NCBI GenBank assembly: GCA_028866995.1 | Contig: JAGWHD010000001.1 | Location: forward strand, 636,068 to 700,067 | Reading direction: 5' to 3' | From: Candidatus Micrarchaeota archaeon | Lineage (GTDB): Archaea; Micrarchaeota; Micrarchaeia; Micrarchaeales; CABMGC01 | DNA length: 64,000 nt | Shown here: positions 5,586-49,209 of the stretch, in pieces | How the letters are laid out: every line of letters begins with the position of its first letter | Position numbering within the stretch: the first letter of the stretch is position 1 | Translations under genes and position numbers: made by a program | The notes under the pieces: model-generated | Databases searched by the model: none | What the model saw: the letters and a program-made list of their open reading frames with translations, nothing else | What the model was told of the DNA's origin: nothing

Positions 5586-6449
5586 TCATGATGTCGGCGC
5601 GGAATAGCCCGATTGCCAGTTCGCATTCCATATGGCCTTACTGGCAGCGCCCTGGTTGTTGTTGCCTGAATAGTCGTTCGCGTTCCCGTTCAGCGGCCAC
5701 CATCCCGCGAGATGGTTCGGATCCACAGGAACGCCACCTATGCCTTCAAGGTATAATGCCTTGGCAGTGGCATTGTCTAGCGATGCGTTGTATATCTGGA
5801 CATTCGCCACGTATATCGTCTCGCCGTTCGCACCTTGGGCCAGGATAAGTTGCTGACTTCCTGAGAAGATAGTGAAGGAAACAGAATTGCTTTGAACTTG
5901 TACACCGTCAATGTACAGATAGGCGTTGCCGTTTGAGACGCAGGTTATTACAATGCTGTGCCATCTGCTGTCGTTGTAATTGCCGCTACTGGGCTTTATG
6001 TTTAGCACCGTGTGCTGGGTCCCTAGATTGTCGCTAGGTTCAAACTCATAGGCTCCATTGGAAGCTAGGATGAGATTGTAGTTCTGGTTCGCATTGCTTG
6101 TCCCTTTCTCTAGCATATACTGGCCGTTTACATCCGGACCAACCACCTTTATCCAGAGTGAAACGGTGAAGGCCGTCAGGGCCAGCGCAGATGAAGGCGA
6201 CGAGATCGATGCTGACGTACCGGGACCGAACTGCCCGACGTATTTGGGGATTAGGTTACTGCATTGCCCAGCGAGACTGGTCTGCGCAGCCGTCTTCATT
6301 ACCTGGCAAGATCCCGGAGTCGCGGTAGGTTTGAGGCTTCCAGCATTGAATATGCCAAGGGAATAGAGCGAGACCATGACGATCGCAATGGCAAGGATGG
6401 CCCAGCCATATGTCATCAGGTACTCCATCGCCGACTGCAACTTGCGCAT
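5586..6449 (-). CDS. Class III signal peptide (archaeal type IV pilin-like) protein with a LamG/concanavalin-type lectin domain, dispersed paralog
   Basis: N-terminus MRKLQSAMEYLMTYGWAILAIAIVMVSLYSLGIFN (QSxxEY plus hydrophobic helix). LamG-like FTVSLWIKV, RWHSIVITCVSNGNAYLYIDGVQ, VANVQIYNASLD. Conserved tail WWPLNGNANDYSGNNNQG. Confidence 0.75.
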   Translation of the reverse strand: MRKLQSAMEYLMTYGWAILAIAIVMVSLYSLGIFNAGSLKPTATPGSCQVMKTAAQTSLAGQCSNLIPKYVGQFGPGTSASISSPSSALALTAFTVSLWIKVVGPDVNGQYMLEKGTSNANQNYNLILASNGAYEFEPSDNLGTQHTVLNIKPSSGNYNDSRWHSIVITCVSNGNAYLYIDGVQVQSNSVSFTIFSGSQQLILAQGANGETIYVANVQIYNASLDNATAKALYLEGIGGVPVDPNHLAGWWPLNGNANDYSGNNNQGAASKAIWNANWQSGYSAPTS

Positions 6450-8534: not shown

Positions 8535-9782
8535 ATGGCGCTAAAGGTCAAGAAACAGGTCTACGACGACGTCCATGGGTACATAGAGCTGACTGAGCTG
8601 GAGACAAGGATAATCGACACGCCTATATTCCAGAGGCTGAGGCACATAAGCCAGATGGGGCCTGCCCATTATGTCTATCCAGGAGCAACGCACACAAGAT
8701 TCTCGCACTGCATGGGCGCGATGTTCATGATGCAGCAGTTCCTGGACAACGTCAGGAGCGACGGGGAGCTGCTGACCACTGATGACGAAGAGATACAGAA
8801 GCTGAGGCTTGCCGCGCTACTTCACGACGTGGGCCATTATCCGATGTCCCACACCATAGAGGATGGCATAGTCAACAGGCTGAAGGGGATGGGACACGAG
8901 CAGCTCGGGGCCGCTTTCGTGGAAAGGTTCCTGCCAGACAAGCTCGACACGTACAAGCCGCACGAGATAACGGACATATTCACCAAGAAGAGAAAGGGCA
9001 GGTTCTCGCTGCTCATATCCTCTGCGTTCGACGCTGACAAGAGCGACTACCTGCTAAGGGACTCGTACCATACCGGGGTCCTGTACGGAAGGATAAACAT
9101 AGAGAGGCTGATGCGCACCATGAGCATAGAGGACGACAGGATAGTCTTCAGCAAGGACGAGAGCGTAGTGGAGAGCTTCCTCATAGGGAGGTACCACATG
9201 TACAGGTCAGTGTACCACCACAAGACCGCTGTCGGATTCGCCCTGATGGCCGACAGGATATTCGAGATGCTCGTGAAGGAGGGCCGCATAGCCCACCCTA
9301 ACGATCTGCTCAAGTCCAGCGAGCTGGACGCATTCTCGTACAACGACAACATGTTCTATTCAGCAATGCAAGCCTACGTAAGCAATGGAAAGAACAGGTA
9401 CCTGAAGGAGCTTGCAGGGATGTTCCTCCTCAGGAAGCCGTTTGCCGCAGCGCATTTCGATCCACAGCCATCCGAGAAAGGGAAGATCCCCAAAACACCG
9501 CAGCGCATAAAGGAGATAGAAGAAAATGAAAAGGCAAAGCAGGCTTTCGCGCAGAAGTCCGGAGTCGATGAGGAATGGATATTCCCAACGTATCTTAGGC
9601 CGCTCAGCCTTGTCGATGAGAGCAGCAGGATATACACCAGCAGGGAGGGCGGGACGATGCCCCTTTCGGAGAACAGCGGGCTGATACTGGGGATGATAGG
9701 CAAGAAGACGCTTTATGACGCAAGGGTATACACCAAGAAGGAGCACGCTGAGAGGCTCAGGAAGGCGATGAAGGGATGGTGA
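8535..9782 (+). CDS. HD-domain phosphohydrolase (dGTPase/SAMHD1-like, COG1078-type)
   Basis: THTRFSHCMGAM, LLHDVGHYPMSH and DADKSDYLLRDSYHTG motifs. 415 aa. Confidence 0.8.
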   Translation: MALKVKKQVYDDVHGYIELTELETRIIDTPIFQRLRHISQMGPAHYVYPGATHTRFSHCMGAMFMMQQFLDNVRSDGELLTTDDEEIQKLRLAALLHDVGHYPMSHTIEDGIVNRLKGMGHEQLGAAFVERFLPDKLDTYKPHEITDIFTKKRKGRFSLLISSAFDADKSDYLLRDSYHTGVLYGRINIERLMRTMSIEDDRIVFSKDESVVESFLIGRYHMYRSVYHHKTAVGFALMADRIFEMLVKEGRIAHPNDLLKSSELDAFSYNDNMFYSAMQAYVSNGKNRYLKELAGMFLLRKPFAAAHFDPQPSEKGKIPKTPQRIKEIEENEKAKQAFAQKSGVDEEWIFPTYLRPLSLVDESSRIYTSREGGTMPLSENSGLILGMIGKKTLYDARVYTKKEHAERLRKAMKGW

Positions 9783-11668
9783 TGCAGGCCCCAAGCATGG
9801 ATCTCAAGGAAGAGTTCGTATCGATCCTAAAGGAAGCGATATCCAAGGGCTTCCCGGGCTCCGGAATTGGCGATGAGGAGATACTCCTGTCGTTGTCAGT
9901 GCCGAAGCCGGAGAACGGCGATATCAGCTCATCCATATCCTTCAGGATAGCAAAGACAGAGAAGAAGAACCCCAAGGAGATAGCCGAGAGGCTTGCATCT
10001 GGGGTAAAGGGCGCACGATTCATAACAAAGACGGCGGCGCTGAACGGCTACATCAACTCGAGCATAGACGAGAAGGAATACGCAGCGCATGTCCTTGGGA
10101 GCATCAAGAAGCAGAAGGGCTCATACGTAAGGAGCGGGCTCGGCAAGGGAACCAAGGTGATAGTGGAGTCTCCTAGCGTTAATCCAAACAAGCCATGGCA
10201 CATAGGCCACCTCAGGAATGCCCTGCTCGGCGATTCCATATCCAACATGATGGAGGCGTGCTCCTACAAGGTCGAAAGGGAAGATTACATAGACGACCTG
10301 GGCATGCAGGTGGCTGAGAGCTACTGGGGGTACACCAACATAAGCGACAAGCCCGACAAGAAGTTCGATACCTGGTTGGGGGAGCAGTACGTCGAGGTCA
10401 ACAAGCGCCTACAGGACAAAGCGATAGAGGAGCAGGTGAGGAAGACACTGGAGAGGATGGAAGAGGGATCATCAAAGGAGGCCAAAGAAGCAAGGAAGCT
10501 GGCCGAGGAATGCGTTAGGGCGCAGTACCAGACCGCAGGCGACTACTCCGTCTACCACGACGTTCTCGTATGGGAGAGCGACATAGTCAGGGCAAAGCTG
10601 CTTGACAAGGCATTTTCCATCCTGACTAAGAGCGGTGTTGTGAAGAAGGATACGAGCGAGAAGTACAAGGACTGCATAATAGTGGACCTGGAAAGGATAA
10701 AGCAGGTGGCCAAGGACTTCGAGAGCCCAAACGAGGACGTAAAGGTATTGATAAGGAGCAACGGCACCGCGACGTACGTGGCCAAGGACATAGCGTTCCA
10801 CATGTGGAAGTTCGGCCTTCTCGAGGACCCTTTCTCGTACGGCACCTTCATGGAAGGCCAGGGCAATGGCAAGCCGCTCTATACGACTTCAGAGTTCGGG
10901 AAGAGGATGGGATTCGCAGGGGTCAGCATGGCCGTCAATGTAATAGACAACAGGCAGAGGTATCTGCAGCTCATACTCAAGTCGATGTTCATGCTCATGG
11001 GCAGGAAGGACATATCCGATTCGATAATGCACCTCTCCTACGGAAAGGTCGATGTGGAGGGGGGCACGCTCAGCGGAAGGGAAGGCGGATGGATGGGCAG
11101 CGGCAGGAACTATACTGCGGATTCGCTGCTAGCAGAGACCGAGAAGAAGGTAATAGAGATAGTGGAGAACAGCGAGAAGATATCCAACAAGGAGAACGCA
11201 AAGGCGATAGCGAGGGCTGTCGCGATAGGGGCCATAAAGTTCGAGTTCCTGAAGATAGCTCCCGAGAAGAACATAACATTCTCATGGGAGAGAGCGCTCA
11301 AGTTCGAAGGCAACACCGGCCCCTACTGCATGTACACCTACGCAAGGGCTTCCAAGATAATAGAAGGGCAGGAGGTTGGCATGCTGAAAGACATGGATCA
11401 CATGTCAAGGTCCGATGATCTGGAGCTGGTCAAGCTTCTAGGCATGGCTCCAGAGATGCTGGAGAAGGCATGCTCCGAGTACAGGACAAACATAGTAACA
11501 GATTATCTGATAGAGCTGTGCACTGCATTCAGCAGGTTCTACGAGACCATGCCCGTCCTCAAAGGAGGGGGTGCAAAGGAGCTCAGGCTGGCGCTGGTGG
11601 ACTCCACGGCCGAGGTGCTGAAAGAGACCTTGATGCTCCTCGGGATAGCGGTCGTCAAGAGCATGTAA
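9776..11668 (+). CDS. argS: Arginyl-tRNA synthetase
   Basis: 630 aa. PNKPWHIGHLRNA (HIGH region) and a C-terminal anticodon-binding region. Overall ArgRS-like. Confidence 0.9.
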   Translation: MVMQAPSMDLKEEFVSILKEAISKGFPGSGIGDEEILLSLSVPKPENGDISSSISFRIAKTEKKNPKEIAERLASGVKGARFITKTAALNGYINSSIDEKEYAAHVLGSIKKQKGSYVRSGLGKGTKVIVESPSVNPNKPWHIGHLRNALLGDSISNMMEACSYKVEREDYIDDLGMQVAESYWGYTNISDKPDKKFDTWLGEQYVEVNKRLQDKAIEEQVRKTLERMEEGSSKEAKEARKLAEECVRAQYQTAGDYSVYHDVLVWESDIVRAKLLDKAFSILTKSGVVKKDTSEKYKDCIIVDLERIKQVAKDFESPNEDVKVLIRSNGTATYVAKDIAFHMWKFGLLEDPFSYGTFMEGQGNGKPLYTTSEFGKRMGFAGVSMAVNVIDNRQRYLQLILKSMFMLMGRKDISDSIMHLSYGKVDVEGGTLSGREGGWMGSGRNYTADSLLAETEKKVIEIVENSEKISNKENAKAIARAVAIGAIKFEFLKIAPEKNITFSWERALKFEGNTGPYCMYTYARASKIIEGQEVGMLKDMDHMSRSDDLELVKLLGMAPEMLEKACSEYRTNIVTDYLIELCTAFSRFYETMPVLKGGGAKELRLALVDSTAEVLKETLMLLGIAVVKSM

Positions 11669-22169: not shown

Positions 22170-22188
22170 CCGAATCACGATGAAGGGG
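22151..22188 (-). repeat. 38-nt gene-junction repeat, copy 1 (identical to 23014..23051)
   Basis: cagattgaaattttaacatccgaatcacgatgaagggg occurs exactly at both LamG gene junctions. It spans the start codon, a 5-nt spacer and the preceding stop. Confidence 0.9.
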
Positions 22189-23032
22189 TGGTATATCCAG
22201 ACTGCCAGTTGGCATTCCATGTAACATTGAATGGCGTGCCTTGCCTGTTGCTTCCAGAATAGTCGTTGGCGTTGCCGTTGAGCGGCCACCACCCCACAAC
22301 GTGCTGTACATCTATCGGTGCTCCCCCTATCCCTTCCATGTATAGGGCCTTTACAGAAGAGTTGTCAAGCGATACATTGTAAATCTGCGCGTTTGCCACC
22401 AATCCGTTGAATCCCCTGCCTATATAGTAAGGATTGGTGCTGTTGGAACACATGCCTGACTGCAATGTGCTCGATCTCTTCACGCCGTCGATGTAAAGAG
22501 TTACTGTCGATCCGTTGTAGGTCGCCAAGGCCTGGTGCCATCTCTTATCCGTTATCGAAACGCTGCCAGTGGCCGCAAACAAAGAACCGTCGCAGGTCGG
22601 ATACTTGCCGAATTCAACGTAAACAAGAGCTCCCCAGTTGTTGGTTCTTATGGCCGAATAGTAATGGCTGTCACGACTCGCAGAAGCTCCAACTAGATAA
22701 GGCCACTGTGAAAGCGTTGAGTTGCCTGCATATCTTACCCATACTGAATAGGTGAAATTGCCTCCGTATGCCATCGGCACCCCAACATTAATGTTCGAAT
22801 TGTACTTGTTGTAATTGGCTGTGTACTTGGGTATGATATTGCCGCACTGCCCGGCAAGGCTTGTCTGTGCCACTGTCCTCACGACCTGGCAGGATCCTGG
22901 AGTAGCTGTCGGCTGCAGGTTTCCCGTGTTGAATATGCCAAGCGAATAGAGCGATACCATGACGATCGCAATGGCGAGGATGGCCCATCCATAGGTCATC
23001 AGGTACTCCATTGCAGATTGAAATTTTAACAT
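22175..23032 (-). CDS. Class III signal peptide protein with a LamG lectin-like domain (tandem copy B)
   Basis: MLKFQSAMEYLMTYGWAILAIAIVMVSLYSLGIFN. FTYSVWVRY, RWHQALATYNGSTVTLYIDGVK, VANAQIYNVSLD, WWPLNGNANDYSGSNRQG. An alternative GTG start lies at 23041. Confidence 0.75.
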   Translation of the reverse strand: MLKFQSAMEYLMTYGWAILAIAIVMVSLYSLGIFNTGNLQPTATPGSCQVVRTVAQTSLAGQCGNIIPKYTANYNKYNSNINVGVPMAYGGNFTYSVWVRYAGNSTLSQWPYLVGASASRDSHYYSAIRTNNWGALVYVEFGKYPTCDGSLFAATGSVSITDKRWHQALATYNGSTVTLYIDGVKRSSTLQSGMCSNSTNPYYIGRGFNGLVANAQIYNVSLDNSSVKALYMEGIGGAPIDVQHVVGWWPLNGNANDYSGSNRQGTPFNVTWNANWQSGYTTPSS

Positions 23033-23051
23033 CCGAATCACGATGAAGGGG
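23014..23051 (-). repeat. 38-nt gene-junction repeat, copy 2
   Basis: Exact copy of 22151..22188. Confidence 0.9.
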
Positions 23052-23904
23052 CGGCATACCCGCTCTGCCAGTTCGCGTTCCAGTTTACGTTCGTCGGTGT
23101 GCCTTGGTTGTTGTTTCCGGAATAATCATTCACATTGCCGTTCAGCGGCCACCACCCTACTAAATGCTTTACATCTATGGGTACGCCACCAATCCCTTCC
23201 TGATAAAGGGCTTTCACTGCTGCACTATCAAGAGAGGTATTGTAAACCTGGACATTCGATATCGAACCATTATAGCCATAGCCGACATAATACGGCGTAC
23301 TGCCTGGGCATAAACCAGATTGTGATGCGCTGTTCTGTTTGATGCCATCGACATAAAGGACTAACGCAGAGCCGTTGTAGGTCCCGACTGCTTGGTGCCA
23401 TTTCCCGTCTGAAATCGACACGCCTCCGGCGTTAGTGTAGCTTGTGCCATCGCATGTCGGATACTTTCCATACTCCAGGAAGACGCTAGCTCCCCAATTG
23501 GACGTCCTCAGTGCTGACCATTCGTGGCTTCCCTGCCCTGCAGATGCGCCGAGGATGGTCGGCCATTGGGAGACTGTTTTATTAGAAAGGTACTTGATCC
23601 AGATGACATAGGTGAAGTTACCGCCAAAAGGCATCGGGGTGCCGACAGTAATAAGCGACGAATACCCGACCCTTCCCACATACTTCGGGATGAGGTTGTT
23701 GCACTGCCCTGCGAGGCTCGTCTGCGCAGCCGTCCTCACGACCTGGCAGGATCCAGTTGTTGCTGTAGGCTGCAAATTCCCAGTATTGAATATCCCCAAC
23801 GAGTATAAGGAAACCATGACAATGGCAATGGCGAGTATGGCCCATCCATAGGTCATCAGGTACTCCATCGCTGACTGCAACCTTGTCTTTTTCAGGATGG
23901 CCAT
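23038..23904 (-). CDS. Class III signal peptide protein with a LamG lectin-like domain (tandem copy C)
   Basis: MAILKKTRLQSAMEYLMTYGWAILAIAIVMVSLYSLGIFN. FTYVIWIKY, KWHQAVGTYNGSALVLYVDGIK, ISNVQVYNTSLD, WWPLNGNVNDYSGNNNQG. Confidence 0.75.
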   Translation of the reverse strand: MAILKKTRLQSAMEYLMTYGWAILAIAIVMVSLYSLGIFNTGNLQPTATTGSCQVVRTAAQTSLAGQCNNLIPKYVGRVGYSSLITVGTPMPFGGNFTYVIWIKYLSNKTVSQWPTILGASAGQGSHEWSALRTSNWGASVFLEYGKYPTCDGTSYTNAGGVSISDGKWHQAVGTYNGSALVLYVDGIKQNSASQSGLCPGSTPYYVGYGYNGSISNVQVYNTSLDSAAVKALYQEGIGGVPIDVKHLVGWWPLNGNVNDYSGNNNQGTPTNVNWNANWQSGYAAPSS

Positions 23905-23971
23905 GTCATTTCCACTATATGTCGTTTTTTGCAAAGCTATTTATTATTGCCATACGTCATTACACTGAGGC

Positions 23972-27796: not shown

Positions 27797-27869
27797 ATGC
27801 TCACGATGGTGAAAACCAATGACGAGTATTAAGCTATTAAATAACAATATATAAAAAGATATGTAGCCT

Positions 27870-27944
27870 GGGCATGTGGTGTAACTTGGATAGCACGTCG
27901 GCTTGCGGAGCCGTTGGTTGCGGGTTCAAATCCCGTCATGCCCG
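27870..27944 (+). tRNA. tRNA-Arg (anticodon GCG), no intron
   Basis: Hand-folded cloverleaf: acceptor GGGCATG/CATGCCC, D arm GTGT/GCAC, anticodon loop TTGCGGA, T arm GCGGG-TTCAAAT-CCCGT, discriminator G. 75 nt. One U-U at 27:43. Confidence 0.8.
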
Positions 27945-28040
27945 TCTACTAAAAGATCCTCGGCAGGTATCTCGAAATGAACCACGCTATCCATCGCATC
28001 CATCTACCAACATCGGCTCACAGAATCTAAATATCGATTG

Positions 28041-28517
28041 TTAGAACCTGTTCGACTTCCTGTCGGTTATTGCCTCGTCTACAGAATGCCTCTTTATCAC
28101 AAGCGCCTTTATCCTGTCGACGTCCTGCACGTGCCTCTCCTTCGCTATCTTCTCGGCCTGCTTGAGCTTGTTGGCGTAGGAGTTGTACGCGATCATCGCA
28201 GCGGCCAGCGCGTCCCTCTCGTGCAGGTTCTCGAGCTCCCTGCCATGTGCAATCTGCTGCTTCCTGTCGACGCTTACGTCGGCATCAGGCGTGAATATCG
28301 AGGAACCGAATATCGCAGCGAGCCTGTGCACCAGCGACTGCGCGTTCCGCTTGTCGCTCGCTATGACAACCGGGGTGCCCTTCTCACGTATCCTGTCGAC
28401 GAACCATTCCAGGCCCACGAACCTCCCCGTGTCTATTCCTACGACGTTGCCGTCAAGGTCTATTGACACTACCGCTGCGGTCTTCCCCGAGTCTATCCCT
28501 ATTATCGTGTGCTTCAT
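28041..28517 (-). CDS. RNase H-fold nuclease-like protein (RuvC/YqgF/DUF460-like)
   Basis: MKHTIIGIDSGKTAAVVSIDLDGNVVGI...PVVIASDK pattern. ATGA overlap with the upstream gene's stop. The start could also be 28523. Confidence 0.45.
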   Translation of the reverse strand: MKHTIIGIDSGKTAAVVSIDLDGNVVGIDTGRFVGLEWFVDRIREKGTPVVIASDKRNAQSLVHRLAAIFGSSIFTPDADVSVDRKQQIAHGRELENLHERDALAAAMIAYNSYANKLKQAEKIAKERHVQDVDRIKALVIKRHSVDEAITDRKSNRF

Positions 28518-29566
28518 GAGCATATTCCGCTTCCGGAATGGCATATCGCGTTCCTTGCGGTCTGCGGCAGCGCCATGTACTGGCAGTCTGCCACGGCTAT
28601 CGGTGTTGATGTTATGTTGTAGTACTTGGCCAGAAGCGCCTGCGAGTTTATCGGATTCTGCGACGACGCCAGGCACGAATTGAGCCTCACCGTGTCCAGT
28701 TTCGAGATGTTAGCTATGCTTGCGAGAGTCGCAGGCGAGATGTATCCGTTGAACGCTGCAAGGCTTCCGGAAAAGTTCGCGAAGTTCTGCTGTGAAGAGG
28801 CGCAGAAGAGATACTTGCCAAGCTGCGCTGCGTTGTCCTGGCCGTGCGCGCCGCCTATGCCCTGCGAGTACTGGCTGTACAGTATCTCCAGGCTCATGTT
28901 GACCTTGCTGCCATAATCATGCTCGAGCTGCGTGTAGTTAGCGAGACTGCCCAACGCGCCAGGCGCATAAGGGTCCATGAACCAGTACACCGGCACGGTC
29001 CCGTTGGCCTGCAGGCATGGCACCTTCCCGTAGAGTTTGACGACTCCTGCGGAGACCACCTGGTTCTGCGAGAGCGGAGTGGGGTTAACTGTCTCCTGGA
29101 ACGGCATGACTACCGAGCCGTTGGCATCGTCTATTATCGCGGAGATGTTGAAGCTCTGGTTCGTGATCGGGTTGCTCGCCCTGACCGAAACGTACCACTG
29201 CCTTGCGCTAGGCATGTACTCGGCCTGTATCGCGCTTACGTTGGTTATGTACGGTATGAGCGCAAGCGTGCTGTTCATGCTGGCATAGCTCGCGAGCAGC
29301 CTCTCGGCTATGCCCTTTACCTGGCTTGCGTTGTAGTTGGGACTTATGCAGGTGCCGTTGTAAGCGCCGTAGGCGCACGAGCCGTTCGGGGAGATGTTCT
29401 GTACAAGAACCGGTCTGTTGTAGGCGATGGCCAGGAGCAGAAGCACCAGCACGATGACAAGGATGACAAGAGCCATGTGTATGCTGTCAAGGCCGCCGAA
29501 CCTCGACAGGGGCTTTACTATGATGCTGGGCTCCTTTATGTCAGCCGTTTTGCTCTTCTTGGCCAT
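28514..29566 (-). CDS. Membrane-anchored DsbA/thioredoxin-like domain protein lacking the CxxC motif
   Basis: N-terminal TM ALVILVIVLVLLLLAIA. VPVYWFMDPYAPGALGS sits where DsbA-like proteins carry D..CP.C. GKYLFCASSQQNFANF resembles the qgkf..f helix. Many N-x-S/T sequons. Confidence 0.45.
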   Translation of the reverse strand: MAKKSKTADIKEPSIIVKPLSRFGGLDSIHMALVILVIVLVLLLLAIAYNRPVLVQNISPNGSCAYGAYNGTCISPNYNASQVKGIAERLLASYASMNSTLALIPYITNVSAIQAEYMPSARQWYVSVRASNPITNQSFNISAIIDDANGSVVMPFQETVNPTPLSQNQVVSAGVVKLYGKVPCLQANGTVPVYWFMDPYAPGALGSLANYTQLEHDYGSKVNMSLEILYSQYSQGIGGAHGQDNAAQLGKYLFCASSQQNFANFSGSLAAFNGYISPATLASIANISKLDTVRLNSCLASSQNPINSQALLAKYYNITSTPIAVADCQYMALPQTARNAICHSGSGICS

Positions 29567-29577
29567 GGTAATCATTA

Positions 29578-29713
29578 CGGGTCCGACGGGATTTTCATTA
29601 ATACCTTACCGTTCATTTTTAAAAAGGTAAGGATTTATTTTGAACCCGTGACCATCACCTTGATCCTTTCGGATTAGGACGGTGCTGCTCTATCCAAGCT
29701 GAGCTACGGACCC
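29578..29713 (-). tRNA. tRNA-Arg (anticodon CCT) with two introns: about 14 nt at the canonical 37/38 site and about 47 nt in the T-loop
   Basis: Hand fold of the reverse complement: acceptor GGGTCCG/CGGACCC, D arm GCTC/GAGC, anticodon stem GCACC/GGTGA enclosing 21 nt (GTCCTA+14+A), T stem ACGGG/CCCGT enclosing 54 nt (TTCAAA+47+T). The mature length sums to 75 nt. Confidence 0.7.
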
Positions 29714-29753
29714 TTGGTAAGATATTTGCATGCAAGCAATTAAAAACAGTTCT

Positions 29754-30167
29754 TTATGCAAGAACCTTGCGCATCCATACGGCCTCGTTGGGCTCCTCGT
29801 ATCCCTGCTTCATGTAGAACGACTTGACCTTCCTGTTTGTGTGGTTCACGAAAAGCAGCACCTTCCTCGCACCCTCGCCTTTCAGCGCATTCTCCGCTCT
29901 TCTGAGCAGGGCGGTGCCAACGCCCTTTCCCTGCATGGCGGGGTCGACTGCCAGGTGGTGTATCCAGGCCCTCCTGCCGTTGTAAACGCCGAATATGGTT
30001 CCTACTACCCCCTTCTCCACGGCGACAAAGCAGGTCTTGGGGTTTATCCTCAGCATCTCCCCTGCCTCGTATCTCTCGTCCGCGATGCCGTTCAGGTCAA
30101 GGCCGGCCCTTTTCCACACTTTGTACATGGCATTGAAGTCACCGATGCGCATGCTCCTTATCCTCAT
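29754..30167 (-). CDS. GNAT-family N-acetyltransferase (137 aa)
   Basis: Acetyl-CoA binding motif HHLAVDPAMQGKGVGTALL. Last gene of the argG-argH string. Confidence 0.8.
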   Translation of the reverse strand: MRIRSMRIGDFNAMYKVWKRAGLDLNGIADERYEAGEMLRINPKTCFVAVEKGVVGTIFGVYNGRRAWIHHLAVDPAMQGKGVGTALLRRAENALKGEGARKVLLFVNHTNRKVKSFYMKQGYEEPNEAVWMRKVLA

Positions 30168-30518: not shown

Positions 30519-31694
30519 CTAATACTTCTTCGCCACCTTCTTGTAGGCGTCGCGGAACGGAACGCCCTTCTTCACAAGAAGATAGGCCTGCTGCGTGGCG
30601 AACAGCTCTTCAGTCATCGCCTTCTTGCATGCGTTCTTATCCACCTTTATGGCGTTCACCATCGCGCCGGCTACTGCCAGCGACGTCTCCGCCGTATCAA
30701 ACGCCTTCATCGCAGGCTCCTTGGTGAGCTGGAAGTCCCGGTTGTATCCTGAAATCAGGTTCGAGATTATGCCCTTTATCTGGAACTCGCAGGAGCTGAC
30801 CACATGATAGCTTGCCCGCAGCAGCTCCAGCGCATCAGGATTCCTCTTGTGCGGCATCATCGAGCTTCCAGTAGTGAATTCCTTGGGTATTGTGAAATAG
30901 CCGAACTCGGGCATGCTGAATGTTATGAGGTCCTGCGCCATCTTGTTCAGATCAAGCATGACCATGGAAAGTGCGTGGGCCATCTCAGCCTCGAACTTGC
31001 CCCTGCTGTTCTGGACGTATATGGGGTTCTCCTGGACCTTCGCGAAGCCGAGCTCCTTTGCTGTGGACTGCCTGTCTACCTTTATCGGGACTCCGTATCC
31101 TGCGCCAGTGCCAAGCGGCGACTGGTCTATCATGGAGTAAGCGCCCTTCAGCAGCGAAATGTTGTCCTCCATCGACTCGATGAAGGCGCCTGCCCAGAGC
31201 CCTGCCGATGACGGCATCGCCTTGCGCGTGTGCGTGTATCCTGGCATCGCGATGCTGCCGTACTTCTTGCTGAAGGACTTCAGCGACTTTATGAAAGAGC
31301 CGCAGAGAAGCTCGCATTTCTTCAGTTCGTCCTTGTAGTAGAGGCGCAATGCAACAGCCACCTGGTCGTTCCTTGACCTTCCTGTATGTATCTTCTTGCC
31401 GACGTCGCCCAGCTTCCTGGTCAGGTAGTTCTCTATTGCAGTATGGCAGTCCTCGTCCTCCTTCCTTATCTGGAACTTGCCCTTCTCGTCGAGCCCGATT
31501 ATCTCCTCAAGCACCGACACCAGCTTCTTGACCTCTGTTGCGCTGAGCACGCCCACCTTGCCCAGCATCCTCGCGTGCGCTATCGACGCCTTGCAGTCGT
31601 ACTTGAGCAGCTTCATGTCCAGCAGGTAGTCGTTGCCGGTCGTGAATTCCTCAACGGCCTTGTCTATGTTGTAGCCCTTGTCCCAGAGTTTCAT
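30519..31694 (-). CDS. argH: Argininosuccinate lyase
   Basis: Fumarate-lyase signature GSSMMPHKRNP. 391 aa (short form). Confidence 0.9.
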   Translation of the reverse strand: MKLWDKGYNIDKAVEEFTTGNDYLLDMKLLKYDCKASIAHARMLGKVGVLSATEVKKLVSVLEEIIGLDEKGKFQIRKEDEDCHTAIENYLTRKLGDVGKKIHTGRSRNDQVAVALRLYYKDELKKCELLCGSFIKSLKSFSKKYGSIAMPGYTHTRKAMPSSAGLWAGAFIESMEDNISLLKGAYSMIDQSPLGTGAGYGVPIKVDRQSTAKELGFAKVQENPIYVQNSRGKFEAEMAHALSMVMLDLNKMAQDLITFSMPEFGYFTIPKEFTTGSSMMPHKRNPDALELLRASYHVVSSCEFQIKGIISNLISGYNRDFQLTKEPAMKAFDTAETSLAVAGAMVNAIKVDKNACKKAMTEELFATQQAYLLVKKGVPFRDAYKKVAKKY

Positions 31695-31700
31695 CGCATC

Positions 31701-32972
31701 TCACTTCACAGCTTTCTTGGCTTTCTTAGTGCGCCATGCGTAGGGGTCCTTCTCCCCCAATGCCACGTAGTGCGCCTTGAGCCTTATGGCGCTGACGTTG
31801 ATGAAGCCCTTCGAGTCCTCGGCGTTGAAGCCTCCCTCCTCGTGCATGCTGGAGAACTTCTGGTCGTAGAGCTTCCTGTCGCTCTCCCTCCCGACAGTCA
31901 TGACGTTGCCCTTGTAGAGCGCTACTGTCACCTTGCCGTCTATGGCCTCCTGGCTCTTGTTGAACGCGTTCATCAGGAAATCCATCTCAGGGGAGAACCA
32001 GAATCCGTTGTACACCAACTCGGAGAACTTCTGCGTGAGCATGTCCCTTATGTGCATGACCTCACGGTCCATCGCAAGCCCTTCGAGATCGCGATGAGCG
32101 GTCCAGAGTATCGTGGCTCCAGGTGTCTCATAGACTCCCCTTGACTTTATCCCTATGTAACGATTCTCGACCATGTCAAGCCTTCCGACCCCGTTCTCGC
32201 TGCCCACCTTGTTAAGGTACATGAACAGCTCCAGCGGGTCCGTCTTCGTAACCTTGTTGGTCTTGTCCACCACCTTTACCGGTATGCCGTCATTGAAGTG
32301 TATCTCGACAACTGTCTCCTTGTCAGGGGCCTTCTGCAGCGATGTCGTCCTGTTGAAGACATCCTCGGCCGGCCTGAGCAAAGGATCCTCGAGTATGCCT
32401 GCCTCGTGGCTTATGTGCATCAGGTTCTCGTCCTCGCTGTACGGCTTGGCAACAGATGCCTTTACCTGTATCCCGTACTTCTTCGCATACGCTATAAGGT
32501 CATCACGTCCTTTGAACTGGTTCAGGAACTCCTTGTCCCTCCAAGGCGTTATCACCTTTATCTTGGGATCAAGCGCGAAGTACGACAGCTCGAACCTCAC
32601 CTGGTCGTTGCCCTTGCCCGTGGAGCCGTGCGAGACATACTGGGCCCCTTCCTTGTTCGCTATCTCTATCTGCTTCTTCGAGAGCAGCGGCCTTGCAAGT
32701 GACGTGCCCATCAGGTACCTGCCCTCGTATAGCGCGTTGCACTTGAGCGCAGGGAATATGAAATCGGTGACAAACTCCTTCTTGAGGTCCTCGACGTAGA
32801 CCTTGGAGGCGCCTGTCGCTATCGCCTTCTTCCTTATCGCCTCGAAGTCCTCGTGCTGCCCTATGTCACCTACGAAGCAGATGACCTCAAGGCCCTTGTT
32901 CACCAGCCACTTGAGTATGACCGATGTGTCAAGACCTCCGCTGTATGCCAATACAATCTTCTCCTTCGCCAT
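31701..32972 (-). CDS. argG: Argininosuccinate synthase
   Basis: AYSGGLDTS and [13 protein letters not shown] signatures. 423 aa. Confidence 0.95.
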
Positions 32973-33039: not shown

Positions 33040-33900
33040 TCATTTCCTTGCCAGCTCCTGCCAGACTATAGATGCGCACGTCAGGCTGCCGTTGAGTATC
33101 TGCGTCTGGCTCGTAGGCGCCTGCTGCACCTTCGATTCGTCGTAGTACTGCAGCGCGAGGTTGTACACAGTCTGGAACTCCTTGGGCACAACCACTCCTC
33201 CGTTCACCTGCAGCACGTTCGCTGCGTAAGCGTCCTTGGGATCGAGCTCTATCACCTTCTTGCCGGCTATGTATTCCACAATGTCAGCTGTCAGGTGCGG
33301 GCTCTTAAGGAAGACCTCCTTAGTGAGGGGAGTCATGCCTGTTGTAAGGTGGAGCACACCCTCTATGTTCTGCAGCTGGAATGACGTTATGCTCGGGTCT
33401 ATCCTTCGCGCCTCTCGCATGAAGGACATGGCCCCCTCGAAGTTGGTCCTTTCGGACAGCCCTATGATCATGGTGTTCCCCACCCTCTCAACGTCTCCGA
33501 ACTCTATGAACGTGCCCTTGCCCTTTATCTTTATCGTCTCTATGCCAAGCGATCCGACGAACTCCTTGATCTCCCCAACCTCCTTCCGCCTGTCTGGATT
33601 CCCTGGATTGGCTATTATCGCGATGGGCTTCCAGTCGGAGCCGGATCCCGCCATTATGTAGGCGGTGTCCTGCACGTATACGCTGTCAGGATGCTTGCTC
33701 TTCGGTATCTCCATGACATGGCCGCCGGCATCGCGTATCGCCTGCTTGTAGGCCGCATGCTCTCGGCTCGCGAGCTCCAGGTCAACCTTCTCCATCCTGC
33801 CGCTGCTCCTTATGCCCTTGTTCATGGTGTCTGGAACATCTGCCCTTACCAGGACCTTGGTCACCAGCGCAGGCTTCTGCTTCTCCCCAATAGCAGTCAC
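33040..33900 (-). CDS. Guanidino-group modifying enzyme, dimethylarginine dimethylaminohydrolase (DDAH)/amidinotransferase-like
   Basis: KVLVRADVPDTMNKGI..., HPDSVYVQDTA, VLHLTTGMTP, AANVLQVNGGVVVP and C-terminal NGSLTCASIV (catalytic Cys context) parallel DDAH by eye. My proposed GTG start at 33900 trims the track's 33993 start, which runs into the divergent promoter. Confidence 0.6.
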   Translation of the reverse strand: MTAIGEKQKPALVTKVLVRADVPDTMNKGIRSSGRMEKVDLELASREHAAYKQAIRDAGGHVMEIPKSKHPDSVYVQDTAYIMAGSGSDWKPIAIIANPGNPDRRKEVGEIKEFVGSLGIETIKIKGKGTFIEFGDVERVGNTMIIGLSERTNFEGAMSFMREARRIDPSITSFQLQNIEGVLHLTTGMTPLTKEVFLKSPHLTADIVEYIAGKKVIELDPKDAYAANVLQVNGGVVVPKEFQTVYNLALQYYDESKVQQAPTSQTQILNGSLTCASIVWQELARK

Positions 33901-33928
33901 TATAATTACCAGACATATTGGGCGATAC

Positions 33929-33941
33929 CTATATATATTAA
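33929..33941. promoter_or_regulatory. AT-rich TATA-like element in a divergent intergenic region
   Basis: ctatatatattaa lies between the DDAH-like gene (minus) and the ACT-domain gene (plus), about 30-40 nt from the proposed GTG at 33900. Confidence 0.3.
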
Positions 33942-33994
33942 CCTTGCGCCATATTTGATGCAAATTGAGCTTAAAATGTATCAAATGGGACAAA

Positions 33995-47745: not shown

Positions 47746-47844
47746 CCCGTTGTAGCTCAATGGCTAGAGCGGCCGCCTGTAGTTCGTAGCAGCACTTACG
47801 TGTTGGAAAGCGGCAGGTTGGGTGTTCGACTCACCCCAACGGGA
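47746..47844 (+). tRNA. tRNA-Tyr (anticodon GTA) with a 26-nt canonical intron (47783..47808)
   Basis: Hand fold: acceptor CCCGTTG/CAACGGG (C1-G72, as expected for archaeal tRNA-Tyr), D arm GCTC/GAGC, anticodon stem GCCGC/GCGGC enclosing CTGTAG+26+A, T arm GGGTG-TTCGACT-CACCC, discriminator A. Confidence 0.8.
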
Positions 47845-48339: not shown

Positions 48340-49080
48340 ATGAAACGATTAACCGCTTATCAAAGGATTATGATAAGGGAACTCGCCAAGACAGGCAGCC
48401 TGAATGAGATTTATACTCGTCTTTCCCTACCAAAATCAACCGTTCAGTATTGGTACAGCGATTACTCTAACTATGTTGCCCCGAAGAGTTTGCGATTTGA
48501 CCTAGGTTCTAACCTGTCAGTAGGTGAATTCATGGGTGCGTTTGCAGGCGATGGTAATTACACAAAAGACCGTGCATACAAGCACCAGATAAGGATTTAC
48601 ATAAACCGAGCAGACACTGGATACATAAACCATCTGAAAGGGCTTATGTTTTCTTTGTTCGGTAAAAATCCAAGCATCTTTATAGATACTAAAAAGAATG
48701 TGGCTGTGCTGCGTTTAGTCTCTGCGGATTTAATAGCGTTTATCCGGACATATCTCAGATGGGAGCATACAAAGACAAAAACAGTGCGATTGGCTCCTGG
48801 AGTAAAGAGAACCAAAGGTTTCATTACCGGTTTTCTAAAGGGGTTAATGGATACTGACGGATACATTAACAAGAAACAACATGTGGCGGTCTTCTCAACG
48901 ATATCCAGTAACCTGGCTAGGGATATAGGAACCTCATTAAGGGGACTTGGGATAAAGTATAATTGCTATAAGAACATTGATAAAAGACCAAATTATAATC
49001 CAATATTCAGGGTTGCTGTGCGACAAGATTTCCTAAAATTCATTAACATTATTAAGCCCTACCATGCAAATAACTTCTAG
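48340..49080 (+). CDS. Free-standing LAGLIDADG-type endonuclease with an N-terminal HTH
   Basis: Two dodecapeptide-like motifs: VGEFMGAFAGDGNY and ITGFLKGLMDTDGYI. N-terminal IMIRELAKTGSLNEIYTRLSLPKSTVQYW (HTH). AT-rich codon usage unlike its neighbours. Confidence 0.7.
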   Translation: MKRLTAYQRIMIRELAKTGSLNEIYTRLSLPKSTVQYWYSDYSNYVAPKSLRFDLGSNLSVGEFMGAFAGDGNYTKDRAYKHQIRIYINRADTGYINHLKGLMFSLFGKNPSIFIDTKKNVAVLRLVSADLIAFIRTYLRWEHTKTKTVRLAPGVKRTKGFITGFLKGLMDTDGYINKKQHVAVFSTISSNLARDIGTSLRGLGIKYNCYKNIDKRPNYNPIFRVAVRQDFLKFINIIKPYHANNF

Positions 49081-49082
49081 AT

Positions 49083-49209
49083 GCCTTGGTCGTCTAGTGG
49101 TTAGGATGCGAGCCTGTCAACACACTTGTTGTGTGGCAGGGCGCTTGCGAGTTTTTGTGAGTTTATTCACAAAGGCCAAGAAACCCGGGTCCGAATCCCG
49201 GCCAAGGCG
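49083..49209 (+). tRNA. tRNA-Asp (anticodon GTC) with two introns: ~22 nt at 37/38 and ~32 nt in the variable region
   Basis: Hand fold: acceptor GCCTTGG/CCAAGGC, D arm GTCT/GGAT, anticodon stem CGAGC/GCTTG enclosing CTGTCA+22+C. 37 nt lie between the anticodon stem and the T stem (4-5 expected), containing the hairpin TTTGTGA/TCACAAA. T arm CCGGG-TCCGAAT-CCCGG. Confidence 0.65.

Follow-up and report, generated by a model that had tools for sequence, protein, structure and literature searches.

The minus strand of positions 29578-29713 of the window (the whole 64-kb stretch of DNA that was analyzed) very probably carries a functional gene for the AGG-decoding tRNA-Arg(CCU) that is interrupted by two introns of the endonuclease type, i.e., of the bulge-helix-bulge (BHB) class. 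Read from 29713 to 29578, the 136-nt precursor consists of three exons with an insert at each of the two exon boundaries (inserts in brackets): GGGTCCG TA GCTC AGCTTGGATA GAGC A GCACC GTCCTA[ATCCGAAAGGATCA]A GGTGA TGGTC ACGGG TTCAAA[ATAAATCCTTACCTTTTTAAAAATGAACGGTAAGGTATTAATGAAAA]T CCCGT CGGACCC G. A first-pass annotation made from the letters had proposed a minus-strand cloverleaf with 14 nt inserted after position 37 (29661-29674) and 47 nt inserted in the T loop (29592-29638), and our mapping reproduced all of its coordinates. The exon lengths of 39, 22, and 14 nt sum to exactly 75 nt, as proposed; the acceptor stem (GGGTCCG/CGGACCC) and the T stem (ACGGG/CCCGT) are perfect, and the 7-bp hairpin CCTTACC/GGTAAGG described for the longer insert is present. 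The parts of the locus are as follows.

29739..29746, minus strand: TATA-like box TTTTTAAT, -33 to -26 from the tRNA 5' end; a putative archaeal promoter, its function predicted from sequence and position
29675..29713, minus strand: exon 1, 39 nt, tRNA positions 1-37 (5' strand of the acceptor stem, D arm, 5' strand of the anticodon stem, anticodon CCT); from sequence reading, ARAGORN, and mapping
29661..29674, minus strand: intron 1, 14 nt, ATCCGAAAGGATCA, at the canonical 37/38 site, drawn as a relaxed bulge-helix-loop with GUCC (32-35) opposite GGAU and a 3' bulge CA/A (the slash within a bulge marks the splice point, here and below); from ARAGORN in intron mode without the T-loop insert
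29639..29660, minus strand: exon 2, 22 nt, positions 38-59 (3' strand of the anticodon stem, variable loop TGGTC, 5' strand of the T stem ACGGG, T-loop TTCAAA); from sequence reading, ARAGORN, and mapping
29592..29638, minus strand: intron 2, 47 nt, at T-loop site 59/60; from minimum-free-energy (MFE) and ensemble folding and from same-site inserts in orthologues
29578..29591, minus strand: exon 3, 14 nt (U60, 3' strand of the T stem CCCGT, 3' strand of the acceptor stem CGGACCC, discriminator G73); from sequence reading, ARAGORN, and mapping

The mature anticodon loop, GUCCUAA, is 7 nt long with U33 and A37 and holds CCU at positions 34 to 36 (CCT at 29678-29676), which identifies the CCU isoacceptor of tRNA-Arg. 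The D loop, AGCUUGGAUA, includes GGA; an A at position 20 of the D loop, a known Arg identity element, was counted toward the tRNA-Arg(CCU) identity.

Gene finders and folding of the precursor

Applied to the 64-kb window, ARAGORN called only tRNA-Arg(GCG) and reported nothing at 29578-29713, and its intron mode made no call on the full 136-nt precursor. When the T-loop insert alone was removed in silico, the program reported tRNA-Arg(cct) with a 14-nt intron, and the fully spliced sequence was called as a 75-nt tRNA-Arg(cct), so that splicing restored the cloverleaf. Rfam/Infernal, run at the gathering threshold and at an E value of <=10 over 29300-30000, gave no tRNA match and only chance miRNA and snoRNA matches below threshold. 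The expectation of the first pass that standard finders would miss such a gene was borne out for ARAGORN and for Rfam/Infernal, for the latter even at an E value of <=10. Because both programs miss the gene, automatic annotation would wrongly report that the main arginine tRNA is absent, and a missed AGG-decoding tRNA distorts estimates of completeness and codon capacity for DPANN genomes.

The 136-nt RNA folded at -50.3 kcal/mol (z = -5.7), and none of 200 shuffled sequences was as stable; the structure of the locus exceeds chance expectation. Both the acceptor stem (7 bp) and the T stem ACGGG/CCCGU are retained in the MFE fold. The same fold contains a helix, ACCGUC/GAUGGU, from which an alternative cloverleaf with a different anticodon can be drawn; this candidate was rejected, since it would require a 3-nt spacer from the D stem to the anticodon stem and a variable loop of 1 nt.

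The T-loop junction and its orthologues in Micrarchaeota

RNA folding, which the first-pass annotation had proposed as a means of finding BHB motifs, located a near-strict 3-4-3 motif at the T-loop junction. In the MFE structure, UUCA of the T loop (tRNA positions 54-57; 29644-29641) pairs with UGAA of the intron (29597-29594) and forms a central helix of 4 bp. The 5' bulge, AA/A (29640-29638), comprises A58, A59, and the first intron base, and the 3' bulge, AA/U (29593-29591), comprises the last two intron bases and U60. The inner helix (h') of the 47-nt intron is made of UAA/UUA and the 7-bp hairpin CCUUACC (29632-29626)/GGUAAGG (29610-29604), and the T stem serves as the outer helix of the hBHBh' arrangement; h' opens with one extra bulged A. 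In the unconstrained ensemble, the four pairs of the central helix had probabilities of 0.58 to 0.64 (~0.6), and the T stem had probabilities of 0.86 to 1.0. The T-loop intron thus has the 3-nt bulges around a 4-bp helix that define the BHB class, and the motif is kept in orthologues.

The ArgH protein encoded in the window is 83% identical to that of the Micrarchaeota metagenome-assembled genome (MAG) REEA6, and its next best matches are also from Micrarchaeota. The argH gene lies ~800 bp upstream of tRNA-Arg(CCU) on the same (minus) strand, and the window and REEA6 share the order argH, GNAT, tRNA, membrane protein. By this 83% ArgH identity and the conserved synteny with REEA6, the host is assigned to the Micrarchaeota (DPANN). 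The neighboring genes in the window are archaeal housekeeping genes as judged by Pfam (SRP54/FtsY, eIF6, S19e, ArgRS, Rad50, EF-1β, FtsZ, Cdc48, aCPSF1/FttA, and proteasome). The remark in the first-pass annotation that T-loop introns are known from a few ultrasmall archaea agrees with this placement, the host being one of the Micrarchaeota and 59/60 introns being documented for ARMAN-2 (PMC3239211).

At the same place in REEA6 (locus L001) there is an orthologous tRNA gene that is 92.6% identical, carries both introns, and has an exon 1 that is the same letter for letter. Two other Micrarchaeota MAGs (L005 and L011) have an orthologue without the anticodon intron and with a shorter T-loop insert. 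The set was widened by scanning metagenome contigs with the conserved 5' exon as the pattern. The T-loop site is likewise occupied by an insert in about 12 to 13 distinct orthologues from the genomes or metagenomes of other Micrarchaeota; the insert lengths at that site are 13 (two variants), 14, 15, 28, 29, 30, 32 (two variants), 41, and 47 nt, the last in the window and L001. The 14-nt anticodon intron is found only in the window and L001 and is absent from the 13 other distinct orthologous sequences. The interiors of the 59/60 introns are unrelated in sequence, and all of these introns start with A. UGAA followed by two bulge bases stands at the 3' end in 11 of the 13 intron-bearing sequences, and three of the four positions match in the other two. 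The 32-nt introns of L082 and L094 end in UGCAUA and UGUAUA, respectively, and not in UGAAAA, so that U55 of the central helix is mismatched with C or U; the BHB motif of these two is predicted to be more relaxed than that of the other orthologues. One orthologue (L096, 1438-1512, minus strand) has no intron, and ARAGORN calls it directly as tRNA-Arg(cct). Its exons are identical to those of L091 and L098, both of which carry a 13-nt 59/60 intron, and the comparison points to a very recent and precise loss or gain of the intron. Two tRNA-Arg(CCU) genes that are more distant but share the 5' exon (L085, from 702, and L090, from 2337) have an intact T loop; their anticodon-loop (37/38) introns are long (roughly 125 and 70 nt, respectively), and the acceptor stem of each is mismatched at U6·U67. 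Orthologues with 0 to 47 nt at one site should be useful for the study of gain, growth, and loss of BHB introns.

In each bulge, the archaeal splicing endonuclease cleaves between the second and third nucleotides, a rule that also yields 37/38 for the canonical introns of the window. Since the motif has 3-4-3 geometry, this rule places the T-loop junction at 59/60. That the gene is real but has its T-loop intron at 56/57, 57/58, or 58/59 instead is very unlikely in our estimation. The A run does allow each of these junctions in the window sequence taken alone, where all three give the same mature sequence as 59/60, and the ambiguity that the first-pass annotation had ascribed to the A runs is, to that extent, real; the BHB geometry and the orthologues settle it. 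In L001 (...UGAAAU/U) and L089 (...UGAAAC/U), the T loop UUCAAAU is obtained from 59/60 only, whereas the other junctions change A59 and give UUCAAUU or UUCAACU. For L082 and L094, the conserved A58 would be lost if the junction were at 57/58. UUCAAAU is the T loop of the intronless L096, matched by 59/60 only, and is also that of the window's own tRNA-Arg(GCG).

The anticodon-loop intron presented a different picture. It can be drawn as a relaxed bulge-helix-loop (BHL) in which G32-C35 (GUCC) pairs with GGAU of the 14-nt intron, with a 3' bulge CA/A38 and the 5' cut inside a 10-nt loop. However, this pairing has a probability of ~0 in the ensemble of the free RNA, where an intron-internal hairpin, AUCC-GAAA-GGAU, dominates (p ~0.99). 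The folding that the first pass had called for at both junctions therefore gave a motif at the anticodon junction that is drawable but disfavored in free RNA, and membership of this junction, taken alone, in the BHB/BHL class is weakly supported. The first-pass annotation had also held that the T-loop intron needs a splicing endonuclease (EndA) of relaxed specificity. This was refined here: the T-loop motif is a near-strict hBHBh', and it is the 14-nt intron at 37/38, not the T-loop intron, that needs a relaxed reading. An endonuclease of broad specificity is accordingly called for less by the T-loop motif itself than by the 14-nt intron and by the noncanonical position of the other intron.

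Exon conservation, codon demand, and predicted processing

A competing view is that the locus is a pseudogene, i.e., a tRNA-Arg(CCU) inactivated by its two insertions, with AGG being read by another tRNA, e.g., tRNA-Arg(UCU) or a second CCU copy elsewhere. Such a view is in keeping with the failure of standard finders to recognize the locus, with a free-RNA anticodon region that does not form the required BHL, and with the fact that only 64 kb of the genome is visible. Yet the exons are 100% identical between the window and REEA6 (0/75 differences), while the introns differ at 10/61 positions; 7 of these 10 differences lie in the 15-nt loop of the intron hairpin and none in its 7-bp stem. Across 11 distinct spliced orthologues, 94.4% of the cloverleaf cells are paired, compared to 23 to 44% when the partners are slid. 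Compensatory changes at six pairs, half of them in the acceptor stem and half in the T stem flanking the intron, preserve both stems, and none of 500 shuffles reached the covariation score. Because columns 7 to 38 of the exon alignment were the search pattern, and are hence invariant by construction, the covariation support is limited to the acceptor and T stems. The G27·A43 non-pair in the anticodon stem and G32 are unusual yet invariant among the orthologues. Within the introns, UGAA and the 3-nt bulges are conserved though the interiors, in introns of 13 to 47 nt, are unrelated. Most orthologues also keep an A/T-rich, TTTAWA-like (TATA-like) box at approximately -26 to -35 upstream, which is a putative promoter. 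Finally, AGG accounts for 452 of the 574 Arg codons (79%) in the 25 Pfam-supported genes of the window, which implies heavy demand for a dedicated AGG decoder. Exon conservation, covariation, BHB conservation, and codon demand exclude the pseudogene in practice, and we accord it only a very small probability.

We consider it less likely still that the T-loop insert is the scar or attachment site of a mobile element, or that the tRNA is split or permuted, and that no cis-spliced intron is present. The 3' halves of tRNA genes are common integration targets, and an ORF of the LAGLIDADG type adjoins another tRNA gene in the window. The insert, however, is just 47 nt long and has no ORF, the 3' tRNA segment is not duplicated, the flanks are contiguous and collinear, and the same site holds inserts down to 13 nt in relatives. 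No other copy of the insert occurs in the window; a search of the window for copies of either intron, as a test for intron transposition, returned only self-matches. Group I and group II introns have a catalytic RNA core of hundreds of nucleotides, and this class was rejected for inserts of 14 and 47 nt with no match to an Rfam intron family. A C/D-box sRNA within the 47-nt intron was likewise rejected, as the intron contains no CUGA/UGAUGA box pair.

The favored reading thus remains that of a functional tRNA-Arg(CCU) gene with two endonuclease-type introns. From the anatomy, the conservation of site and motif, the exon covariation, and the codon demand, which are the features seen directly, we infer that the precursor is transcribed, cleaved, and ligated. 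Transcription from the TATA-type promoter ~30 nt upstream would give a two-intron precursor of ~136 nt. In its T arm, the T stem would act as the outer helix and U54-A57 would pair with intron UGAA as the 4-bp central helix; the two 3-nt bulges would consist of A58-A59-i1 and i46-i47-U60 (i, intron position), and h' would be made up of UAA/UUA and the 7-bp hairpin. The archaeal splicing endonuclease would then cut the T arm after A59 and before U60, and the 14-nt intron would be cut at 37/38 by way of the relaxed BHL (G32-C35/GGAU, with 3' bulge CA/A38). An RtcB-type RNA ligase would join the three exons into a tRNA of 75 nt whose T loop, UUCAAAU, is normal, and addition of CCA would follow ligation. 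Because the intron lies in the T loop, the precursor would be without the tertiary interaction between T loop and D loop until it is spliced. Among about 70 ORFs of the 64-kb window that were scanned with Pfam, neither a splicing endonuclease (tRNA_int_endo) nor RtcB was found. As no EndA gene lies within the window, the enzyme type is assumed from ARMAN-2 (PMC3239211, PMC12397907), and by that analogy the endonuclease of the host is probably of the ε2 type.

A more speculative scenario, which we regard as improbable but less so than the rival readings above, is that the 59/60 intron of tRNA-Arg(CCU) is ancient in the Micrarchaeota and shared across the lineage, that its interior has been remodeled time and again (0 to 47 nt), that the branch leading to the window and REEA6 grew a selectively maintained 7-bp hairpin and gained the second intron, and that the long intron has a role of its own. 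If this were true, the long intron might, e.g., persist as a stable or circular RNA after excision, guide an intron-dependent modification, or shield the major AGG-decoding tRNA gene from integrating elements, and the orthologue series would offer a natural system in which to study how tRNA introns arise, grow, and are precisely lost.

Known tRNA introns and other features of the window

The closest parallels are in ARMAN-2 ("Ca. Micrarchaeum acidiphilum"), in which 56% of tRNA genes are disrupted (Fujishima et al. 2011, NAR 39:9695, PMC3239211). There, pre-tRNA-Cys(GCA) has a 13-nt intron of the hBH/BHL type at 59/60, pre-tRNA-Pro(GGG) has two T-arm introns of the strict hBHBh' type at 53/54 and 59/60, and the three-unit ε2 EndA cleaves the 59/60 intron of tRNA-Cys(GCA) in vitro (PMC3239211). 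The broad specificity of the ARMAN enzyme has been tied by later structural work to an ARMAN-specific loop (PMC3488258, PMC12397907). The gene described here shares with these cases the phylum-level lineage, the 59/60 site, and the T stem as the outer helix of the BHB, and the orthologous introns of 13 to 15 nt (L011, L091, L081, and L097) match the 13-nt hBH/BHL type that is cut in vitro by the ARMAN-2 ε2 EndA. With introns in three of its four tRNA genes, compared to the 56% disrupted in ARMAN-2, the window fits the ARMAN-2 pattern. Unlike the ARMAN-2 cases, the tRNA is tRNA-Arg(CCU), and its 59/60 intron is much longer (47 nt) and is a near-strict hBHBh' with a 7-bp inner hairpin. Here the 59/60 intron is paired with one at 37/38, whereas in ARMAN-2 tRNA-Pro(GGG) it is paired with one at 53/54, and the host belongs to a Micrarchaeota lineage other than ARMAN-2, with a GC content of ~54%. 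By analogy, the gene would work as the ARMAN-2 cases do and fits in their class. Because such introns have been described for ultrasmall (Micrarchaeota/ARMAN-like) archaea since 2011, the gene is a further, clean instance of a known phenomenon. It widens the known Micrarchaeota habit of 59/60 T-loop introns, which now takes in one more tRNA and numerous uncultured lineages, and it leaves the current understanding of archaeal tRNA splicing unchanged. Its value is chiefly practical, since common finders overlook the main AGG-decoding tRNA.

Genes for tRNAs with multiple or noncanonical introns in Thermoproteales and other Crenarchaeota were reportedly described by Sugahara et al. in 2007 and 2008 and by Fujishima et al. 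in 2010. Outside the ARMAN-like archaea, multiple and noncanonical tRNA introns are typical of Thermoproteales (PMC4033280). Thermoproteales and other Crenarchaeota resemble the present case in having up to three BHB introns per tRNA, noncanonical positions, relaxed motifs (HBh' and hBH/BHL), and an EndA of broad specificity (PMC4033280). They differ in that their enzyme is an (αβ)2 heterotetramer with a crenarchaeal-specific loop (PMC4033280); the lineage here is DPANN. Crenarchaeal intron families also show evidence of transposition between tRNAs (PMC4033280), whereas neither intron has a second copy in the window. Compared to the canonical 37/38 hBHBh' introns of the window's tRNA-Tyr and tRNA-Asp, the 59/60 intron is the structural equivalent in the T arm, with a 5-bp stem, four loop nucleotides that act as the central helix, and a cut two nucleotides farther on; it differs in that the insert sits in the T loop.

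Four tRNA genes were found in the window. Three of these have introns, and two of the three, those for tRNA-Arg(CCU) and tRNA-Asp, have two introns each. Our own scan of the 64-kb window for hidden tRNAs, in which T-loop inserts were allowed, returned just these four and spurious matches within coding regions. Besides tRNA-Arg(CCU), they are as follows.

27869-27946: tRNA-Arg(GCG), no intron; called by ARAGORN
47746-47844, plus strand: tRNA-Tyr(GUA), intron of ~24 nt at 37/38; 56 bits in Rfam, missed by ARAGORN
49083-49209, plus strand: tRNA-Asp(GUC), two introns; missed by ARAGORN and by Rfam with default filters, 36.5 bits in permissive Rfam only

The intron of tRNA-Asp(GUC) at 37/38 is 22 nt long and forms a strict hBHBh' with a CUGU/GCAG central helix and CACAC/GUGUG as h'. 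Its second intron, of 33 nt, lies at about 45/46 in the variable region, with a CUUG/CAAG central helix and an h' of 10 bp. The T loop of this tRNA reads UCCGAAU, with C at position 55. An ORF of 246 amino acids with a LAGLIDADG_3 domain of the homing-endonuclease type (48340-49080, plus strand) begins ~500 nt after tRNA-Tyr and ends 3 nt before tRNA-Asp; it appears to be free-standing, outside any intron or intein.

A gene for a membrane or secreted protein (28514-29575, minus strand; N terminus ...EPSIIVKPLSRFGGLD..., with many N-x-S/T sites and no Pfam match) begins 2 to 15 nt past the 3' end of tRNA-Arg(CCU) in the window and at most orthologous loci (L001, L011, and L081-L099) and is followed by a DUF460 gene. 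This tight linkage suggests a tRNA-mRNA cotranscript in which the 5' end of the mRNA would be made by 3' processing of the tRNA. The window also holds an arginine-related cluster within ~25 kb, comprising arginyl-tRNA synthetase, two tRNA-Arg genes, argH, argG, and a weak arginine-deiminase-like ORF; the clustering is possibly a coincidence. Its members lie at the following positions.

9776-11668, 27869-27946, 29578-29713, 30519-32972, and 33040-33993: arginine-related cluster

Three paralogous ORFs on the minus strand (5586-6449, 22175-23041, and 23038-23934) have a Laminin_G_3/concanavalin-like lectin domain and, judging from that domain, probably encode surface proteins.
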